Positions 1 to 34,149 of a DNA stretch of 40,150 nucleotides are shown here, in pieces. The translations under genes were made by a program, and so were the position numbers. The notes beneath the pieces were generated by a model. That model saw nothing but the letters and a program-made list of their open reading frames with translations. It had not been told where the DNA came from and did no database searches. The DNA is from Vezdaea acicularis (Eukaryota): NCBI GenBank assembly GCA_026025075.1, contig JAPEUI010000135.1, positions 1 to 40,150 on the forward strand, read 5' to 3'. Numbering within the stretch: position 1 is the stretch's first letter; every line of letters starts with the position of its first letter.

Positions 1-3000
1 TTTAGAGAGTATGCGCGACGTAGGAAAGGGTTTTCGGTGACGGTGGCGGTGCACCTGACTCAAATGTTTGAGACGGCGCACAGACGTGTGAAGAGCGGGC
101 ACCGCTTGATTGACTGGGAAGCGACGAGGAGCGATCCGGCAGCAACCGATCTGAGACGGATCAAGATGGGCAATTGTGACGGTGACGGTGAAATCGAAGA
201 AGACATGGCCAGTGACGCTTCCAGCCAACTGCTGTACCCCCAACCATCTACGATGAATGCAGCCATCTTATTTGTGCGACGGCCAAATAGAGTTGAAGTG
301 GCTCGGTGGAAAAGTCCGCTCGTGGGCAAGTAGAAACTCGGTCCGCGAACGCGACAGATGCCCGATGCAGCCGGTGCGACATGTAACCCTCCCCCCTAAA
401 AGTGGCGGCAGGCGCTTAGAGACACCAGTCACACGCGAGACGGAGCGGCGAGCAAGCCCGCGAACGATGTTGGTGACGAGAACGGCCCGCATTCGCTCCG
501 TTCCGCTGCTCGAAACCTTTCGCCGGCGACCTCTCGAGCGACGCCCACGGACGGGAGATGAGGCGATGGTGGTTGGACGCCACAGCCATGCTGATCTCTC
601 GCCGTGAAGGGCATTTACTGGATGGATGGCCCATGTAGAATGATGTGAAGTGAGAGCAAAAGGACTGGTGAGGCACGCATTCCAGTCAACCACTGACGAC
701 CGGAGAATACACGTCCACGGTTGTGGCGACGATGTGCGGGAATGCTACTTGATACTGAACAAGTGCAGCTCGGTCGCCGCTTCCGTCGAGCTGCCCTGCA
801 CGAGAAAAGAAGGTTCGACGCTCGCCTGCTATCACTTCAGCCGGACGGGGTCGGGCAATGCATGTCTCGGGGAACCGTTGCAGTGGGAACGCTTATTCTA
901 GAGGATTCGCGGCGAGGGGGTGGCTCGCTCAACTCTAATTGCGATAACCCTCGAGGCCGCAAGCATGAATCCGCCGGACAGGCAGACTTCGCGTAACAGA
1001 TCCGAGAAGGGGTGGGGGCAACGGGGGGGGCAACCCGAGGGGGGAAGGGGGAGGAGGAGGACGATTACCTGGAGAGAAGGATGGGGGGGTCGCTCTTTCG
1101 CCCCAGGTCGAGCGTGCTGCCCGACGGCGGTTCCATGGCCTCGCGGTCTTGCTTTTTGATAGATACCATCCCACGGTCTCGGGGACGGGCTTGCACCAGG
1201 CGACCAGGACCGCGATCCTTCGCCTCCATCCGAAGAAGGATCGCTCTCGATGGGCGGGGGCCGGAAGCTGGACGAGCGTTTGACTACTTTCTCGTCCGCG
1301 TTCTCGTCGGACCCAGCAAATCACGACGGCGAGGAGGCCGCATAATGGCGACCGCGGCCGAGAGGAAAGCGATTGGCTCGTCTGCAATGCAACGACGGGC
1401 AACCTGCGACCTTTCCGCCCGCGGTGCCGTCGTCTTTCTGCAGTGCCGGTGCAACTGCTTTGTGCATTTTGTGCCCAGCTGCATGACGCACGCTACAGCT
1501 CGCCAAAGCTCGCCTGAGCTCGTCTGGGTACGGAACCAGTCCCTTGAACCACGCATTGACCGCGAGGCTGCAGTACCACCGACCCGGTCGCGCCGTTGCC
1601 CGTACCAGTGGATCGAGGATATTGTCGTGCTTCCGAACTTGCATCGACAGTTTCGCCGTTTGCGACATGCGGCGTGAGACGTGAGACGCAGGTTTCTCGC
1701 CCGCGAGCTTTCTCGTGGTGTTTCCTCTCTCAGAGCGCGAGGTGCACACCCTCCCTTGCGCCTCGTTCTCAGTTGTGAGATGAGGGGCCTGCAACTCAAC
1801 CCCGGCCCCATCACATCGCTAGCGTCGGCTTCATGCGCGTTTGCCGTTGCCCCTGGTCGGCGGGAGCTCCTCATTGGATCGCCGGCCGCGCCGTCGAGTG
1901 ATGGTGATCCGCATTTTTCTTCCGAGCCGGCTCATCCACCAATCATAAAATCGCGCCGTCAAAAACCAAAAAGGAGATTTTCCCTTTGGCTCTTCCTCGC
2001 TACTCTTTTCTTCCTCTCATGCTCCACGTTCTATCTATCTATCAAGCCACTGACCTTCTGCCACTCGACTGGGCCCCTCGTCTCATTTGCTGAACGCCGA
2101 GGTCCGACGCAAGTCATATCACGAGAGAGCCACAAAGCCTAGGCGGGATGCTCCACGCGGTGGATTTGAAGGCCATTCGATACATTGAATGGCCGTCACT
2201 TCCGTCTATCCCGACATGGTGGACCGTCGTGCCAAGCCCACACGGAAAACTTCCCGACGGCCGATAGCAGGGTCCCCTAGGGAAAGAGCAAGGGAGAGAG
2301 GACTGGGCTAGCGGTCTCAAGCTAGCTTCCGACCAGGGCCAAGGAGCCTGCCGAGATTGATCGTGGCCGGCGTCCCAGGCGGCGTCCAGTCAACGAGGAA
2401 CCGTCTGATTGGAACCGACCTTTTCGTCTGTCGCGCGGTCTGGCTGGTGGAAGGCGACATGGCGACCTCGTATTCCTCCTCCACCTCATGGCAGGCTGGC
2501 GGGACGGAACGGCCTTTGCCTTCAGATTGCCGTCCCGTGCAAGAGAGATCCCCCTTTCACGATACGGATACTGACGGCGATGGCGTTTTTCGATAAGAGT
2601 CGATTCGTCAAATCGGCCTCCCATGTGGGCTGAGGGTTGCTAGAGCAGTAGGGATTGCCGAAGCAGGGCCCGGCATTCACATCGAGTGCCATACTGGGCC
2701 ATAACACTCGAGTAAACATGCTGGGACGATGGTTGGGGAGTTGACTGCGATCAGCAGCCATCCATCTCGGCGCTTGATCGTCAGCACGAGAACAATCTGT
2801 GGATCAGATGAACGACGAATCTGAGTTTTGATGCCATCGATAGCACCAGCGCGGGCGCGCCTGGCCGAAGTGCGCCTCGTATGATGGAGATTCAATGGCG
2901 ACGGTGACGAGCAGGAATCCCCACGAATGAGGATGAGGGGGAAAAAGAGAGAGCATGAGAGCGAGAGAGGGGAGCGATAGCAGTAGAGCAGTCAGCAGTG

Positions 3001-6000
3001 GAGGAGTGGACGAGCGCTCAATGGCGAGAAACGTGATTGCTCCTGCATGCGAGTGGCAGGGACAGGGGTGATGGCCGTGGTGCGCAGGGGTCAGGTCGAA
3101 TGCGGGAGCTGCTCTGGGCACAGCTTTCCCTTTCCTGTAGGTGCCTGATCGACTCGCTTCGAGGCCCCGACTCGGCTAAGCCAGCCCTCGCCCCCCACTC
3201 GCACCCCTCCCGTTTCCATCCTCTCAAGCTCTTGGTCGCCCATCCCTAATCTACTCATTACATAGTCATAACTGCCATTAACGGTGTAATGCGACCCTAA
3301 GCCCCATCGGCCATATTAGGGTTGAGTGGATGCGCCATTTGGGTCGTTGTCATTCTTTGGCTTTCCTTCGGCTTCGTCGTTGCCCTTCTCAACGCCTATC
3401 CGCTAGGCGCTGATCCCGAAGCTATTGATCTTCCGCTGTCAGATCGGGTTGCGATGGCCAAATGCAGAAGCAAGGTCGTCCGTCTGCCCCTCGGTGTCTT
3501 CGAAACGTGCGGCAAGCTCACTGGCGACAACCTCGTCGACCGCCACGAATCGATCTTCCTCTGCTCAATCGGTCGTGAAGCAGCAGCCACGACCATCCGT
3601 TTCGGGAAAACGGGACATGACAATAATTCTCCGAGGACGCTCCGGGAGAATGCCGCAGTGCTGCTTCCCACTTAGGAAAGTGAAAGAGGCGCGAGGGCGG
3701 AAGCAGACGCAGACACACCGGGCACACTCGCTGGAGCAGATGCAGACGCGCTTCTACCGTTCGGCATCGGACACTCTTCTGACGTGACGCGAATGCCACC
3801 AAACCGTTCGAACGCCTCCTCGGCAGATTCGATACTCGTTTCTCATCATGTAGATCGTCGGGGCGAGTGACAGGTAGGCAAAAGAAGGCGAGGGGCGCAC
3901 ACGAGTGAGCGATGGTACCACTGCGGCGGGTCGGATGAGCCCTCGAGCTTAAGTTTGGGGCGAGGTCTTCGCTGGCCCAGAAGCAGGGCGCCCGAGGAAG
4001 ATGCTCCCACGGCGATGCCAGCCGGGGTGAAAGTGCGGAGAAGCGGAGGGAGAACAGCGGAGATCTGGACGCAGCTACGTGATAACACTAGCCATTCGCT
4101 CTTTCTCCATTCACTCTCCCACATCGCCCTAGTGCGCAATGGCGGAAGAAGTGGCCGAATCGCGCGACCTTTCCCCTCCTGATAGTAGATAGCATGCACC
4201 TCGAACCAGATTCTGCGAAGAGGGGGTTCGTTCTGGGGAGCTCTACGAACGTGTCCTGAACGAGAGAACCGAAGGTCGCTGCTCAAGATGGAGCAGCACC
4301 GATGGCGTGACTGATTGGTGACGCGAACTCAAATACTGGCATTCCTGATTCCCAACCTGGGCGTTGACAGGTTCTCCGCTCGGCTTCGTGAGCTCTCTTT
4401 GAAATGTGCCTTGAACCGCATGTTTGTGTAGGAGTACGTGGAAGCCCCGCGCAGGAGCACAGCGGGAATCGTCTTGCGCGGTCCTCGACAAGCAGATGCA
4501 TCGGCATCGCCTTCGGCTTCGCTCACCGAATGATGCTTTCGAGATTCGCGAGATGCAAGCCGACGTCAGAAAGCCATGGCCGCGCGAAGGATGAAAAAGA
4601 ACGATGAAAGCTAAAGGCAGGCCGACGAGCAATGGCGCTGAAAGCGCGCCGAAGGATTCCCGCCAATCTGCCCACGGCCGTTGCATGTGCGTGCGTCTGC
4701 GCCTGCGCCGGAGCCCTTCGCACCGATCTTCCCGAGGGCGCGAGATGTCCGTGCAAGATCCCGCGAGCGCGGAACCCGTCCAATTCTCTGGCAAAGGCCG
4801 CAGTCGCATCACGGCATCCTTGCCAGGCGCCAATCGAGTCGCGGCAACGCTCTCCGCCAGCTGTGTTTCAATATATTCGTTTCATTTGCAGTCGTGACCG
4901 TCGCGGTGGAGGGCGTCCCGAAGTGGAAATCAGATGGCCATCAGGCTCCGCGAGTGGCACGAACAGACGCGGCGGGAGCACCACGGTCGCGGCCGCCCGA
5001 TCGCCGTCGTTGGCTCCGGCCGCGTGTGTCTCGTGTGTGCTTCATCTCCAGAGCTGAGCGGACCTGATTCGAGGAGGGGGGGGGAAAGGCACACGCCGCA
5101 CGAATCACGTCGGCGTAAACCTTATCCACGAAGTTATCCTCCGATGTCAAATGGTCGAATGGTGGCAAGCGTGCTGCCGGAAGCATCGCCTTTTTTCCGC
5201 TCTTGGCGGTGTTGGTCAGCCACCTTGGCCCTCTCTTCTCCATGCTCCGCCGTCTGTCCTGTGAAAGGGCACTGTTCGCGGTGGGAGCTCGTTATTAGCG
5301 GTTGCCGTGATGATCGCCGCCCCTGATGTTGCCTGAGTGCCAAGCCCTAATCGGTCGCCGCCGTCCCTCGCTCTTGCTCTCCTCGGCCTCTCTGTCGCTC
5401 CTCCCTTGTGCAGCGTCACACCCGGCCGCGGTGCTGCCCGTACTCATGGCGGCTGACAGCGACACCGTGATCTCGCAACGGCTGGTAGTCATCACGCCCT
5501 CGTCCCGACGGCGGTGCGACCGTCGTCGGTATCGCTACACATCGTGCACGCTCCGTTCTCGTGGAGAGGGCGCGGCGGTGCCATGAGAAAGGCAAAGCCA
5601 CGATCAACCGCGGTCGTCGCGAGAACGGATGCAGGGCAGGGGGGCTTCCTGGGGGGCGTCCCCTCTGCCGTCGCCAGAGACGGGTTCGCCTAGGCCAGTT
5701 CGAGACCGGGGGCCCTAGCTCCGTTCCCCCCTGCCTCTCGCCCCTTGCCCCTTGCCCCATTGCCCGCGAACCAGATTTCGGGGAGGGAAATGGCTGTCAA
5801 GCGAATTGCACCGTGCGCAGCGTCGCCCGCAGTAGCCTCCTCGCTAGCGCGCCTCTAGCGACGACGCCTCTCCGATCTCCCTCGACGCCGTCTCGGCCGT
5901 CGGGCCGTCACCAACTCGTGAGGGAGAGATAGACGCGACCATGGCCACGGCCACGCAACGTCGACAGAGCGGCGCGAGAGACGGTGAAGTCAGTGAAGAT

Positions 6001-6260
6001 GTGTATGTGTGTATGGGGGTGTGGGGGTTGTGTGCGCTGCGGATGAGGTTGCCCACCTACGGCAGACGTCGAAAAAGGTGGCGCCCTCAAGCGACGCGAC
6101 CCCCTCCCCCTCCGTGCCCGCCGGAGAAACGCCATTGGGACGTTAGCTGACTTTCTGGGGAATCGCGGCAGATCGCACCTTTTCAGCGCGGCCGAGCGAG
6201 CCTCCAGAGCTCGACAGCTCTCTGGGAGACCGGCCGCTGCACCGACGCTGACTGGGCCTG

Positions 6261-6308
6261 GCACACGCTTGCCCACGCTTGCCCACGCTTGCCCACGCTT
6301 GCCCACGC
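6261..6308. repeat. 10-bp tandem repeat (GCCCACGCTT) x ~4.8
   Basis: gcacacgctt gcccacgctt gcccacgctt gcccacgctt gcccacgc read directly; lies just upstream of the CT-rich tract. Confidence 0.95.
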
Positions 6309-6344
6309 CGGTCCGCGCCACGGTTCTTGCCTACCCCGGCTCCG

Positions 6345-6625
6345 ATAATTGACCCTCGCCCTCTCCCTCACCCTCGCCTCGGCCCTTGCCCTGTCCTCCC
6401 CTCTCTCCAACATGCCCGACGCTCTACTCACATCTCTCTCCCTCGCTCACACCCTCTCGCGCGCCATCTTTCCTCGACCCATCTTCCTCTACATCCTCCC
6501 CGTGTCCCCCCCCTCCCTCCATCCAGAACTTTCCTCTCCACTCTCAACCTCACCTTCAACTCTCCTCCGCCGCTCTCCTCCTCTCCACATCCTACAGACT
6601 CTCTTCTCTTTTCTTCTACTAGACC
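6345..6625 (+). promoter_or_regulatory. Pyrimidine (CT)-rich tract, probable core promoter/TSS region of the RasGEF gene
   Basis: ~280 nt strongly C/T-biased. CT boxes typically precede transcription starts in filamentous fungi. It lies ~0.8 kb upstream of ATG 7402. Confidence 0.55.
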
Positions 6626-7098
6626 CCTCTGGCCGTAGACCGTGCCGGGCCTAGGATCAAAGAGCATTCTTTCTCTGTTGTGATATCCGAAAACGTCCTG
6701 CCTTTTTTTCCCCTTCGCTTCGAAAAGTGCCGCCCTTGCTTGCAACTTGCAGCATCGGCCACCTACGTTCGTTAACGACCCCGAACCTGCAGCGGAGATC
6801 TCGCACATCCATTCTGACCTGTGCGTCGATTCTCTCGAAAGCTCAGTCCGAGGCCAATTGCAAGGAGACACAACGTTAGGGTAGCACAGAGCACAGGACC
6901 TGGACAGGACCATTATCACTTCACACGGACATTTCAACTTCCACGACAACCTTCATTATCGGCGTGTCTAGATCAAAGAAGCGCCTCGACTGACCAATAT
7001 CTCGTACCTGCTGCTCCGATTGGCGCTTCAGGCTTTCTGGGAACCGCCCACCTGCGTTCCGGATAACGAGTCCGCGAGGGGTGTGAATCTTGAAACAG

Positions 7099-19378: not shown

Positions 19379-22300
19379 ATGATGGATTCTCTAGCCATGG
19401 AAACAAAGGAAGAGGAAAAGATGAGAATTATGCGCGCAATTATGGAGGTAAGGACATCATTGATGTTATGACCTCAGTGGTCTGAATCACTGTTCAACAT
19501 TAGCCACTTCACTACCTTCAACGATTCGCTAGAAGCATCTAGCTCTGTTCTTCCAATAAGATGATGTATCTTAGAATCCTTATACTTAAGATCAAGCTCA
19601 TTGATCTTGTTTTTTCTTTCCCGTTTTTGATCGTCCACATTTTCAAAATTCCTAGCCCACTCCTTTACGCCCAATGATACTCCAACGTGCCATTGTGTAG
19701 AAAAAACCTCTCACTGTCCCCCTACTCTCATCATTCGTGACGCATATCGCCAGATCGTCTTGCGGGAAGTGACTTATCGTTTTTCAGGATGACCTAGGTA
19801 TAAATCGACGTGCAAACCTAGTCTTGGAGGGTGACGACAACCGGCGAGATGTAGATCTGAAAAAGCTCGATAGTTCCAGGAAAGCCAATGACCCTAGATC
19901 AGAAGAGGGAAGATTAGCTAAAAAGAATGAGGCTGGTATCAACGCGTGGACGAGTTAGTATCACCCACCTTGAAAAGGGTCAGCTTGAAGATTGACAGAC
20001 CAGTAGATTTTCACTTAACCCAGGACGATGCCGAGAGAGATAAGGAAGCAGAGGCAATGCCCCTAGAAAGTGACATGGGATTTGGCCAGTCCTATAGAAC
20101 ACAAATGCAGGAAAACCTGCGTGTCCGCATGGAGTATGAAAAACGCAAGTCAGGCTCGTCTCGCGGTGGAAGTAGTAGGAGAGGTGGTCGTGGCGGCGTT
20201 GCCATCGTACGCCAGGCAGCCAGGACAACTCCCTATTCTAGGTATGCCATCAGATATTCCTGTAAAATATGGTCATGATGGGCTTGAATAACTTGTATAA
20301 CAGATCTGAAGAAAGGGAGAATCATCAGGCAACTTCTTCAAGTTCTCACCGTGGTGATGATGTGTTCAATGACTTCACCACTCCTATGAACGACCTTTGT
20401 CTTGGCTCATCAGGACTCTCAAAGGAGAGGATATCCACTTCTGGTTCCCGCTCGGGTGATGAGAAACCTACAAAGTTCAACCCCTGGGCCTTTGGTATAC
20501 GTCCTGTTTCTGAGATGTATTTTGACAGTCGATCCCCTCGCCCTAGTGGTCCAAGGACAACCCCCTTTATAGGCCAGAATCAGAATCCTGTCCAGATAGA
20601 TGGCCATATACCGTTCATACTGCCTCCTCGACCTGGCGGCCCAAAGAAAGTCTCCACCGTAGGCCTGATAAAAGCTCACATCCAGAAAAATGACTACCCC
20701 TCATTCAATATGCCTCCTCGGCCCGGCGGTCCAAAGACAAACTCCGTTGTAGGCCAGAAAAAGGCTCCTGTCCAAATAGATGGCCATATACCGTTCATAA
20801 TGCCTCCTCGACCTGGCGGCCCTAAGAAATTCTCCACAATAGGCCAGAACCATAGTCAGGGGGTTGAAGAGAGAAAGGATCCTGATGTCAAGAGCAACCC
20901 TAAGGAAACAAGAAGCCATCTCGACCTCGCCCAGTCCTGGGACCGTGGACAAGACCCTCGAGATAAGCCAGCCTCTCGTAGCATTTACCATGATGAGGAG
21001 GCAGCTCATGGCAATAACGTTGAGGCTGAGATCCGATCGACCAGTCGCAAGGGAGAAAATTCTTCTAGAACTTCTTCTTCCTCTGATCGTATTGGTAAGG
21101 TTGATGCGACACCATCACGTCATCATTGGCCCATGAGTACAGACCCGTAAGTCATTATCTTTCCTATGTTGGCTCAACGTGCTTACTCTCCTAGGGCTTT
21201 CTTAGCTAGGCTCGACGATACGACTGCATGGGAAGCAAATGCAACGCAAAACTTGAAAGTGTTCGGAGCGAGCTACGTACAAGCTACTGCTACTCCGCAA
21301 GTCTTTACTGGCCTTCCGCCTTCCGTGTCCGCCATCATTGCTGGTGACCAAAGCCGCGTCTATGACATTGAGTTCTTACTTCACCTGAAGAGTGAAGTAG
21401 AAAGATCTAAAGGATCGAAAGAGAAAGACAGCTCTGCTCTGAGCCCTGTCGGCATGTTGATTGACTTGAAAGAAGAAACGAAAGGAGTCGGCTGGTTGAT
21501 TGACTTGACAGATGAAAAAGAAGTTGGCCTGTTGATTGACATGACAGAAGAAAACAAAAATGTCGGCTTGTTGACTGACTTCACAGAAGAAAGAAACAAA
21601 GTCGGCGTGTTGATTGACTTGACGGAGGAGAAAGAAGTACCAAAGACTTCACCAAATATTGACGCGTCCGCTCTCTATTCCGAATTAGCCGAGATTTTCG
21701 CCCTTCAAGCGGAAGAGGACGCAAAACTCAAACTGAAGCTACCCCCGAGTGAGGACGCCACAGTTGAGGCTTCCACTATTCAATCTCAACCTGGTCCTGA
21801 CAATATGGATCCCGACAACATGGAAGACGAATTCATTGAAGACGTGCATAAGCTCTTCACGGAAAAGTCTCGATACAGAAAACGACTCAATTCCTTTGAG
21901 GAGCTATGGGCCAGGTATCCCGACGCGGTAACCAAATACGACCTCGAATGTGAACTGTCAAGAGAAATAGGATGGCTGAACGGAATCTTGCAGCAGGTCA
22001 GAATTAACAGATTTGCTACGACAGACGAGAACAACTATATTGTCGAAAGGTCTGAATTCTTGAGGGTTGCCGGCAGACACATCAGGTCCGATACTGAAAT
22101 GCGAGAGTTCCTGTTAAAGCCCAAAAGCCCTCCCGCCAAACCCATCAACAAGGCAGACGAAGTTAGTCCTGAGTTGAGGTATTTCCTTAAACACGGACTC
22201 ACAACTTGGCCTCCTGAGGGTCCCGAGTTTGAGGCTTACATGGCTGCTGTAAGACTTGAGGCTCAACAGAAATCTGCTGGAGAAACGGGCGCAGCTAAGA

Positions 22301-22880
22301 CAGACATTGAGAAGGGTAAGCCGATCCCGCAGAGTCGAGTCGGGAGCACTGTTCAAACTGTTACCCCTCTAGACAAGGACGTTCAAGTTCCGGCGAATCT
22401 GGAGCATCAAGTTGATCCACCTAATGCAGCAACTGCAGGTGAGGCACGGGCTTCGTCATCCGAATCTTCCGTTCAGTAAGTTTATCTCACTGTTCTCTTC
22501 ATCTCACTGTTCTCTTCGTCTCACTGTTCTCTTCACCCCACTGTTCTCTTCACCCCACTGTTCTCTTCGTCTCACTGTTCTCTTCACCTCACTGTCCTCT
22601 TCACCTCACTATTCTTGGTGGCCTAACTAATGAAACCCTTAGACCTAATCAAGTTCAACAAGCTGGAAACGTGGTGCCCACGAGTGTTTCCACCGAGCAG
22701 GAGTATGTGAGCCCGGTGGCGCAACTTCTTCGTATGGCAAAGATGGAAGATGCTCAGAAAGCGGATACTTCAATCACGGGTGAAGATGACGCAGTCGCAG
22801 CGGGGAAGGGAGAGCCAACGGTTAGACCGAACTCCGAGAAGAATTTGAGCTTGATCGCAGAGCTGCTCAGGCAGAAATAG
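19379..22880 (+). CDS. Hypothetical, largely low-complexity protein, ~943 aa; exons 19379-19447, 19788-19953, 20007-20241, 20304-21146, 21195-22475, 22643-22880
   Basis: Five GT-AG introns (donors GTAAGG, GTTAGT, GTATGC, GTAAGT, GTAAGT) join ORFs 19946, 20269, 21166 and 22671 into one frame. The total of 2832 nt is divisible by 3. Exon 1 and intron 1 are the least certain parts. Confidence 0.75.
20535..20850 (+). repeat. Coding 90-nt (30-aa) tandem repeat, ~3.5 copies, encoding PPRPGGPK units
   Basis: Units begin AGGCC at 20571, 20661, 20751 and 20841. Units 1 and 3 are nearly identical (PVQIDGHIPF.(L/M)PPRPGGPKK). Confidence 0.92.
21448..21636 (+). repeat. Coding 36-39-nt tandem repeat x5 encoding VGxL(I/T)D(L/M/F)xEE
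   Basis: gtyggc-nnn-ttga(t/c)tgac recurs five times: VGMLIDLKEE, VGWLIDLTDE, VGLLIDMTEE, VGLLTDFTEE, VGVLIDLTEE. Confidence 0.92.
22484..22616. repeat. Intronic 17-bp minisatellite x ~8 (consensus RYCYCACTGTTCTCTTC)
   Basis: Units start at 22484, 22501, 22518, 22535, 22552, 22569, 22586 and 22603, inside intron 22476-22642. Confidence 0.95.
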
Positions 22881-23123: not shown

Positions 23124-24349
23124 CTAACAACCACGCTTTCGCTTTCGATTCGCACTTCCAGTTGCTTTCTCTGTTGTAGAAGATGGCTCCTTAGCCGTCA
23201 TGCTTCTCGTTACTCTCCTTGTTGTAGATGATGGCTTCTTAGCCTGCGAACTTCTCTGCTTCCTTGGTTTCTTCCCGCTCGGCGCAGCACGCGTCTCATC
23301 CCCTCCTCTGCTCCCTGGCTTGACTTCCTCTTTTGGCTTCTTCAGTGCATCCGCAAGCTCTTCAGCATACTGATCAGTCATCCCTTTAGTTTTTACGTAT
23401 CGAACACTGCTGATCTGTTTTAGTGGCTCAAGAATCCGCTCGTCCTGCTCCATATACTTATCTCCGAAAGTAGCTCTGGTGTATCACAGTCGTCAGTATT
23501 AGATGGTCCCAGTCCCCCAACCGTTTGCCTTCATAGAAGGCCAGTGATTATATACTGACCTTGGATAGCTTGGTTCCGGCCATTCGACCCACCTCGTCGC
23601 ATCATACAACAACTTCAACTCGACTTGCCGCAGATTACATTCCTCTAACGTCTTGCCCATCTTCTCCAGGGCTACAATCAGTGCAGGTCGTTGACGCACA
23701 TAAATAGTCTTGTCATCTTCCCAGCGTTCGAAGGCAACACTAATCACTACGCTTCTCAAGAGCGGTAGCACCTTCGGCTGGATATTGTCAAGACCTGATA
23801 CGACGGGCGGAGCGCGAACAGCAGGCCAGGCAACGGCGTCGACGCGTAACAGGAAGCGGTTGATATTGTAGAAGCAAATGGAGGCTTCGTAGCTTACCTG
23901 ACGACTGACCAGGAAAATAGGGAGTTCAAACTTATTGGACAGGAACGAGCGCTCGTGGGAGGTGAAATTCTTGAAAGTCTCGAAACCGGCCATGTTGAAG
24001 GGCCGATGCGGCCACTTATCACGCACCCTCTGGGCGGCTGTGACCCTGTTGTACCGCTTTGGCCTGGCAAATAGGAGACCTGGTTTCCAGACCAGGTACT
24101 CCAGTATTTGAGAGCGGATTTCATACGGTAGGTCCATGAAACGAAAAGGTGGCTTTCGCGTCTCAGCGTCACTCAACTCATGTGGGGAGGGTTGCACCTT
24201 ACAGGCTTGGTATCATCTTTCTTAGGCTTTCTATGGTGTCGAAGACGGGAGCCTGAACCGCGTTGATTCTCTTTCTTCCGACGACGACGGGAGTGGACAG
24301 CCGTCGTGGACTGAGCCAATGCAATACTTTCGGGTGCCACTTTAGGCAT
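23124..24349 (-). CDS. Hypothetical protein with F-box-like motif, ~363 aa; exons 24349-24203, 24152-23560, 23475-23124
   Basis: PFRFMDLPYEIRSQILEYL F-box-like start and IFLVSRQVSYEASICFY..NRF, a pattern common in uncharacterised fungal proteins. Introns 24202-24153 (GTAAGG..AAG) and 23559-23476 (GTCAGT..CAG) keep the frame. An alternative in-frame ATG is at 24370. Both termini are basic. Confidence 0.75.
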
Positions 24350-32995: not shown

Positions 32996-34149
32996 ATGTC
33001 GGGCATTTTTGGCGGCACAGCTTCAGGCTCGACAGCTGCCAATGCCACTCAAGGCGACACCTCAAAGGATGTGGCCCTGACAAATCCTCCAGAAGACAGC
33101 ATCTCGGATCTTTGCTTTTCTCCGCAGGCAAATCATCTTGCCGTATCATCATGGGACAAGAAGGTCCGCATATACGAAGTCCAGGACGGAGGACAAACTA
33201 TGGGCAAGGCGTTATACGAACATGAAGGGCCAGTACTGAGCTGTCACTGGTCTAAAGTAAGTCCTCAGCCTTTTAAGCGTGCTATATCGGTTGAGATGAA
33301 TGTTGAAAATTGCTAAACTTTGCTTAGGACGGCAGTAAGGTGGCTAGCGGAGGTGCTGACAAGGCTGGTCGTGTCATAGACCTAGGCAGTGGCAGTACTC
33401 AACAAGTAGCTGCACACGACGAACCTATCAAGTGCATACGCTGGGTAGATGTCCCTAATTCTGCACAGCAAATGCTTGTCACAGGTTCTTGGGATAAGAC
33501 TATCAAATACTGGGACCTTCGAGCACAACAGCCTGTCGCCTCAGTACAATGCCAAGATAGAGTCTACGCACTTGATGTCAAAGACAAACTCTTGGTCGTG
33601 GGGACTGCTGATCGATATATCAATATAATTAGCCTGAGTGATCCGGCTAAATTTTACAAGACGATGCAATCCCCACTGAAGTGGCAAACCAGGGTTGTGT
33701 CATGTGTGATAGATGCGTCTGGATTCGCTGTTGGTTCCATCGAGGGACGATGCGCTTTTCAGTATGTCGAGGAAAAGGACGCCTCCTCAAACTTCAGTTT
33801 CAAATGTCATCGCGAAACACCTCCCAATGCACGAGACATCTCAAACGTTTATTCAGTTAATGCTATATCCTTTCATCCTGTTCATGGGACATTCAGCACA
33901 GCGGGTAGCGACGGTACATTTCATTTTTGGGACAAGGATGCTAAACATCGCCTGAAAGGTTACCCAAACGTGGGTGGCACAATTAGTGCAACAAATTTCA
34001 ACAGGGACGGAAATATCTTTGCGTACGCCGTGAGCTATGATTGGAGCAAAGGCTTCAGTGCGAATAACCAGAATTACCCAAATAAGGTCATGTTGCATCC
34101 TGTAGCGCCGGACGAGTGTAAACCAAGGCAACCGCCGAAGAAGAGATAG
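32996..34149 (+). CDS. RAE1: Poly(A)+ RNA export factor Rae1/Gle2 (WD40), ~360 aa; exons 32996-33256, 33328-34149
   Basis: PPEDSISDLCFSP, SWDKKVRIY, SPLKWQTR, GSIEGRCA, FSFKCHR, WDKDAKHRLK and YAVSYDWSKG. Intron 33257-33327. Confidence 0.96.

Follow-up and report, generated by a model that had tools for sequence, protein, structure and literature searches.

A six-exon gene of Vezdaea acicularis encodes a likely messenger ribonucleoprotein scaffold of an undescribed fungal family, with predicted eIF4E binding

The stretch of DNA analysed here (the window) comprises 40,150 nucleotides (nt) of Vezdaea acicularis, positions 1 to 40,150 of contig JAPEUI010000135.1; its DNA is fungal, and the source assembly has a size of 18.9 Mb. 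Beside an aconitase gene in this window lies a six-exon gene for a largely disordered protein, which an earlier sequence-only reading had regarded as an orphan and a candidate adaptor linking eIF4E and mRNA to the clathrin machinery. Our data suggest that the protein is likely a messenger ribonucleoprotein (mRNP) scaffold belonging to an undescribed family and that it is predicted to bind eIF4E, whereas the link from mRNA to clathrin, the more striking claim, finds little support. In the open-access literature we found no eIF4E-binding protein (4E-BP)-type protein of such architecture described in filamentous fungi, and the available part of a review of unicellular eIF4E partners omits Pezizomycotina (PMC7139794). 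The family, with members in Glarea, Botrytis, Sclerotinia and powdery mildews among others, would be a testable candidate for cap-dependent translational control.

The exons (Table 1) join, by predicted splicing, into 943 codons followed by a stop codon. All five introns (340, 53, 62, 48 and 167 nt) begin with GT and end with AG, and in six of six exons the proposed frame has the best coding score against the five other frames under a codon model trained on six neighbouring open reading frames (ORFs); in the three forward frames, coding scores are negative for intron 1, intron 5 and the DNA upstream. The product is 68% disordered (FoldIndex below 0), cysteine makes up 0.2% of its residues, and Pfam returned no family at its cut-off for exons 2-6, exon 1 with its 23 amino acids (aa) lying outside the scan. 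The sequence thus supports a single gene with a largely disordered product, and the six-exon model and the lack of a recognised globular domain stand as the sequence-only reading had given them. An alternative, that this is a mis-spliced model or two genes, in which the TAA at 21148-21150 would close exons 1-4 and exon 5 would stand apart, could appeal to the shortness of intron 4 and to the lack of any match for introns 4 and 5 in the relatives that were read (see below), where L006 and L071 each have one long exon. We consider it highly improbable, because introns 4 and 5 both carry consensus GTAAGT donors, because fewer than 20 nt separate that TAA from the next ATG, too little for two fungal genes, and because family features flank intron 4 on both sides, as they do in the single proteins of the relatives. 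As a separate observation, aa 650-795 (window ~21830-22265) look helical by eye, and no search detected a relative of this region.

Table 1. Exons, motifs and tandem repeats of the six-exon gene, in window positions
Feature	Position	Strand	Content and basis
Exon 1	19379-19447	+	23 codons; final ...RAIME corresponds to ...HAAMM in the family, ahead of the phase-0 intron
Exon 2	19788-19953	+	N-terminal family motif A (DDLG..R..L.LE) and conserved W
Exon 3	20007-20241	+	Family motif B (D...A...L......GQ.YR, ~20027-20098) and RGG patch; by alignment with relatives
Exon 4	20304-21146	+	Disordered, S/P/R-rich
Exon 5	21195-22475	+	eIF4E-type motif, LIDL array, acidic stretch, possibly helical region ~aa 650-795
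Exon 6	22643-22880	+	Includes stop codon; by reading frame and coding score, without support from relatives
RGG patch	20162-20197	+	Three RGG; 0.28 expected
90-nt tandem repeat, 3.5 copies	20536-20849	+	Encodes three PPRPGGP units; lineage-specific
RVYDIEFLLHLK	21355-21390	+	Canonical YxxxxL-phi, basic residue at +9; putative divergent version of the family motif RxxYSxxELLxLR
39-nt tandem repeat, 4.9 copies	21448-21636	+	Five VG.L[IT]D[LMF][TK][ED]E units
17-nt minisatellite, 7.6 copies	22486-22615	no strand	Within intron 5, filling most of it

Exon 5 and exon 3 retrieved nothing in word-based protein searches, an alignment of exon 2 retrieved one fragment among 3814 candidates, a metagenome scan with exon 5 confirmed none of 144 stretches, and the ESM Atlas gave only matches below 0.9 for exon 3 and for residues 205-362 of exon 5. 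Relatives were found through the neighbourhood. Using the neighbouring aconitase exon, identified as such by Pfam, as the query, we retrieved 80 metagenome loci. Just 48 of these had at least 2 kb of DNA upstream of aconitase, and in seven of the 80 (L003, L004, L005, L006, L007, L011 and L071) a relative of the gene adjoins aconitase. Model residues 24-141 matched L003 and L004 by tblastn at E ~1e-5, exon 2 aligning with 45% and 43% identity over 55 and 58 aa, respectively, and the other five loci were added through small profiles. The intron positions, read by eye, are shared as well: six of the seven loci (L004, L005, L006, L007, L011 and L071) match intron 1 (phase 0), six match intron 2, a phase-1 intron that follows the conserved W, and four match intron 3, a phase-2 intron located behind the arginine-glycine-glycine (RGG) block. 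The relatives stand head-to-head upstream of aconitase and the window copy downstream on the same strand, and the desaturase-like gene of the window is also present at L006.

A profile of the relatives' central region, the seed of which was an alignment of three loci and so narrow that the range of the family is a lower bound, picked out 66 of 1.84 billion proteins at E<=0.001. Fourteen full-length members bear an N-terminal module (MMEELG..R.D.L.L, W, D...LD.IA.GQL.R), and a profile of these 14 alone scored the window protein at 13.9 bits, against 7.4 for the best of 1000 shuffles; at least one RGG lies within the first 250 aa in 13 of the 14. Among the 30 members that were looked up, 10 carried organism names (Glarea, Cudoniella, Sclerotinia, Venustampulla, Podosphaera, Golovinomyces, Drepanopeziza, Rhynchosporium, Phialocephala and Botrytis, genera which we take to be Leotiomycetes), and all 10 are annotated as uncharacterised or hypothetical (for example, GLAREA_08958 and PAC_09561). 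Pfam returned nothing at its cut-off for 22 family proteins and five relative ORFs, and one sub-threshold domain of unknown function was the sole match at E<=0.1 in the 22 members. Together, the N-terminal module, the shared introns and the neighbourhood place the gene, at the level of sequence, in an undescribed fungal family, and with relatives beside aconitase and 66 family proteins the gene is not the orphan it had been taken for.

The usual order of features in the family is the N-terminal module, RGG, GLxxS[RK]WA, a beta domain, an L-I-[SD]-[FL]-acidic motif and a helical domain, after which come the Y motif and an extended disordered tail, in some members a PAM2-like motif, and lastly a helix-like motif at the C-terminus. 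GLxxS[RK][WFY]A occurs in 58 of the 66 members against 1.4 expected, often in two to five copies (P0002-P0067, for example, L006:1512-6173 and L011:1310-2242), and the PAM2-like motif in seven against 1.5 expected, with the ELM pattern, or in 13 with a looser pattern drawn up post hoc. The beta domain of L006 was modelled with a PH-like fold at a predicted local distance difference test score (pLDDT) of ~65-85 and resembles the RanBD of RanBP3 (Z 8.9, root-mean-square deviation (rmsd) 2.6, 89 aligned), the RanBD of Nup2 (Z 8.8, rmsd 2.6, 85 aligned), the EVH1 domain of ENAH (Z 8.2, rmsd 2.6, 86 aligned) and Dcp1a (Z 8.0, rmsd 2.7, 82 aligned). Since the matches to RanBD, EVH1, Dcp1 and Rpn13 Pru are tied at 5-14% identity, no family within the PH-like superfamily can be assigned to the domain, and this likeness belongs to the relatives, the domain being undetected in the window protein. 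The helical domain (~110 aa; L011:117-701, - strand) was modelled at pLDDT 92-98 over approximately residues 21-120; it gave no Foldseek match at E<=0.001, with a best Z of 5.3, which does not establish a new fold, and a PDB sequence search with its alignment gave no matches. An Rpn13-like Pru plus DEUBAD identity, suggested by the top Foldseek row, was rejected after later structure comparisons of the helical domain gave it no support.

The bare YxxxxL-phi pattern turns up in 21% of shuffles of the window protein, and conservation was therefore the test that counted. The canonical pattern is present in 42 of the 66 family members against 15.8 expected, and a relaxed Y-motif pattern in 53. After three off-position pattern matches had been dropped, a matrix of 52 sites was built, with the consensus R-x-x-Y-S-x-[DE]-[ED]-L-L-x-L-R-x-x-A; among the aligned sites, Y is found in 51, L at +5 in 44 and R or K at +9 in 51. 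Column identity is 0.96, 0.72 and 0.85 at Y, +5 and +9, compared with ~0.08 in the flanking upstream columns, values that are partly circular because the sites were chosen by that pattern, while R at -3, S at +1 and A at +12, positions outside the selecting pattern, reach 0.43, 0.55 and 0.68. The basic residue at +9 agrees with the extended eIF4E-binding consensus YX(R/K)X2L-phi-X2R/K given in PMC6061780. Judged from these alignments, the eIF4E-type motif is conserved family-wide as an island in disordered sequence. Thus, the idea that the protein's motifs are conserved islands holds for RGG and the eIF4E-type motif and fails for the strict clathrin motif considered below.

The best site of the window protein for the 52-site family matrix is RVYDIEFLLHLK (score 4.2, P=0.029); a first extended-motif pattern had been drawn up after seeing matches, and its shuffle values were left unused. 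The window motif has K at +9, as the extended consensus requires, and unlike that consensus has no basic residue at +2, a position for which the acidic partner residue is missing from fungal eIF4Es (PMC6061780). 4E-BPs have a further, non-canonical hydrophobic motif separated by a linker; in the window protein, Y stands 32 residues before the first LIDL unit. Around aa 721 and 739, two degenerate segments resembling the Y motif were noticed by eye; they scored far below zero on the family matrix and were dropped.

Several results weigh against reading this copy as an eIF4E-binding member of the family. Within the motif, RVYDIEFLLHLK carries D at +1 where the family has S, F at +4 in place of E/D and V at +12 instead of A, and it is without the hydrophobic patch at +15/+19/+20 that is present in 69-77% of family sites. 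The motif order is inverted, with LI[SD]F before Y in the family and Y before LIDL in the window protein, and an LI[SD]F-type motif follows Y by 10-100 aa in just one of 46 members. Conservation of the site is itself incomplete, since 14 of the 66 members lie outside the 52-site set, several of them fragments and three with F or I for Y. Beyond the motif, a profile of 66 family cores scored the window protein below its own shuffles, hhalign of the family core against it gave a probability of 0.3%, and the GLxxS[RK]WA and PAM2-like motifs are absent from it. A possible remnant of the core, VFTGLPPS, was noticed post hoc and was equalled by 26 of 1000 shuffles. By sequence comparison, then, the PH-like and helical core and these two motifs are lost or altered past detection in the window copy, which could serve as a natural deletion variant hinting which parts of the family persist longest.

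Structure prediction adds a weak positive, with limits that count on the same side as the results above. The genome encodes three eIF4E paralogues (L083; L084/L086; L085/L087, on contigs C4, C285 and C86), so that a 4E-binding protein could be paralogue-specific. A 40-aa window peptide combined with an eIF4E that we take from its sequence to be class-II-like scored 0.44 against 0.02 for the best of three controls, where the modelled eIF4E was a 142-aa single-exon piece of that paralogue and not the canonical one, and where complex scores are uncalibrated for peptides and a pass may reflect memory of solved eIF4E-peptide structures. The partner pLDDT was 57-58, and the runs share at least 90% of contacts. 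The mark used for such predictions was passed by 51 of 78 solved complexes and two of 108 mismatched pairs; at or below 0.60, just five of the 78 solved complexes passed, and all four passing mismatches lay there. In a PDB sequence search, the motif peptide gave one chance match (E 1.6). The window peptide is thus only weakly predicted to bind the class-II-like eIF4E.

We then consider the LIDL array. The RGG patch, the PPRPGGP repeats, RVYDIEFLLHLK and the five LIDL-like units lie where the sequence-only reading had located them, but their independence as an ordered series does not survive, since a single tandem DNA repeat encodes all the LIDL units and another all the PPRPGGP units, so that each set counts as one event instead of as five or three independent motifs. 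PPRPG was found in one of the 66 family members. On a matrix of 61 family L-I-[SD]-[FL]-acidic sites (61 of 66 members aligned), the top five matches in the window protein are the five repeats (best P=0.008), and the array is therefore best taken as an amplification of the family's single motif. In the family, the third residue of this motif is S in 26 of 61 sites and D in 22, and the fourth is most often F (32 of 61). The family model places the LI[SD]F-type motif immediately outside the helical domain, with reduced confidence (pLDDT ~62), and it may serve as a linear motif for a third partner, neither clathrin nor SUMO.

Clathrin binding by the array is central to the earlier proposal of an adaptor whose five clathrin boxes would tie eIF4E-bound mRNA to clathrin coats, a proposal that we judge very unlikely. 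The yeast clathrin motif is [TSNV]L[IL]D[ILMFW], often with an acid at +5/+6 (PMC11543927), and the window units are similar to it in that four of five match the core L[IL]D[ILMFW], one matches the strict motif and all five have an acid at +5/+6; the likeness extends to the yeast adaptors Ent1/2, Ent5 and Yap1801/2, which likewise have LID[LM] tetrapeptides near acids (same source). In the family, the core pattern occurs in 23 of 66 proteins against 4.6 expected and in 17 of 61 sites, the ELM clathrin box matches 21 of 61 sites, and the relatives have a PH-like fold, which is found also in some trafficking adaptors. However, the ELM box matches none of the five window units, their fifth residue being K or T, and the strict yeast motif matches only one of 61 family sites, with S in place of D in 26. 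Neither NPF nor DP[FW] occurs in the window protein, and neither is enriched in the family (8 against 6.8 expected and 5 against 8.4 expected, respectively); in contrast to the yeast adaptors, the window protein has no ENTH/ANTH domain detected by Pfam in exons 2-6. Those adaptors moreover have one unique clathrin motif each, and non-acidic residues after the motif lower affinity (PMC11543927). The five copies here arose in one duplication event.

A second reading of the array, a tandem SUMO-interacting array that would combine a poly-SUMO reader with an RNA/eIF4E module in one protein, seems to us quite unlikely. Three of the five units match the ELM core of parallel SUMO-interacting motifs (SIMs) and two the xIDLT class, for which 0.013 are expected, but at the family site xIDLT is found in none of 61 and the SIM core in 15, F prevailing at the fourth position, and chance alone often yields the SIM core pattern, at 2.4 per shuffle of the window protein. 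According to PMC12751080, parallel SIMs consist of a hydrophobic core followed by acidic residues, as the units do, and a yeast clathrin-motif search also caught Uls1, a SUMO-targeted ligase (PMC11543927), so the clathrin and SUMO motif types overlap. A RING domain, by which SUMO-targeted ligases differ from the window protein, had no Pfam match in exons 2-6. SUMO binding appears to fit the LIDL array about as well as clathrin binding does. The strict clathrin box being so rare in the family, clathrin binding is not a conserved family trait, and by the same motif counts SUMO binding does not appear to be one either. Of the proposed scaffold between eIF4E and clathrin, the disordered, eIF4E-type half is thus supported and the clathrin half weakly so, given local amplification and the single strict family site.

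The missing core and the repeats also raise the possibility that, even if the family binds eIF4E, this is a decaying or repurposed copy: relaxed selection would have let the core go, the Y motif would be a relic or a chance resemblance, and the repeats would be neutral slippage in disordered sequence. The undetected core domains and three undetected family motifs would fit such a history, as would the inverted motif order, the three tandem repeats that the gene contains, one intronic, the frequency of the bare pattern in shuffles and the family-matrix score of only 4.2. We nevertheless consider it unlikely, because all 943 codons are open with coding-like codon use in every exon and because the two motifs that were kept are the family's two best linear ones (P=0.029 and P=0.008). 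In addition, five single-protein queries of the organism's own genome, three of them from the family, found no second gene copy, a result that does not prove absence.

With a little more than even confidence, we instead favour a disordered scaffold whose Y motif would bind eIF4E, whose RGG patch would bind RNA or mRNP factors, and which would act as a repressor or sorter. The YxxxxL-phi helix would compete with eIF4G for docking to the dorsal face of an eIF4E, the RGG patch would touch RNA or other mRNP factors, and the scaffold would repress, store or sort capped mRNAs in the manner of Eap1/p20 and 4E-T/Cup-type proteins. In the window copy, two short motifs were amplified through DNA tandem duplication, and the LIDL array would raise avidity for whichever partner the family's single motif binds. 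Such a 4E-BP-scaffold-like working rests on motif evidence, binding itself being predicted.

Known systems show both likenesses and differences. Metazoan 4E-T/Cup, Mextli and GIGYF-type proteins are long and disordered, with a canonical eIF4E motif, a basic +9 residue and further mRNP short motifs, and in those traits the window protein resembles them; the family differs in being fungal and in its other domain content, with no homology detected (no Pfam match). eIF4G shares the eIF4E motif and RGG/RNA-binding patches, and some family members have a PABP-type motif, but MIF4G was not found by Pfam, so eIF4A recruitment is unlikely and a repressor or sorter is likelier than an activator. The yeast 4E-BPs Eap1 and p20/Caf20 likewise carry a canonical YX4L-phi in disordered sequence, with eIF4G competition as their inferred mechanism, and the p20 motif is N-terminal, whereas that of the window protein is mid-protein (PMC6061780). 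The family's RGG boxes and PH-like and helical domains set it apart from these two. A broader view would make the family a new class of filamentous-fungal eIF4E regulator, with the Y motif on the cap side and the PAM2-like motif on the tail side plus a PH-like module and a helical domain, and with the core swapped in the window copy for a five-fold array tethering mRNPs to clathrin or SUMO chains; we regard this combination as distinctly doubtful.

Outside the gene, window 1-7000, upstream of a RasGEF-like gene, is GC-rich (57-65%) and holds several short tandem repeats but no convincing long ORF. A downstream ORF (window 23499-24212, - strand) has a sub-threshold 2EXR match (E 0.018) and was not found among the 80 aconitase loci. 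A WD40 gene (window 33328-34149) that we presume, from reading its sequence, to be Gle2/Rae1-like lies ~15 kb from aconitase in the window, and at most ~3.5 kb downstream of aconitase in 12 of the 80 loci (L032-L064).

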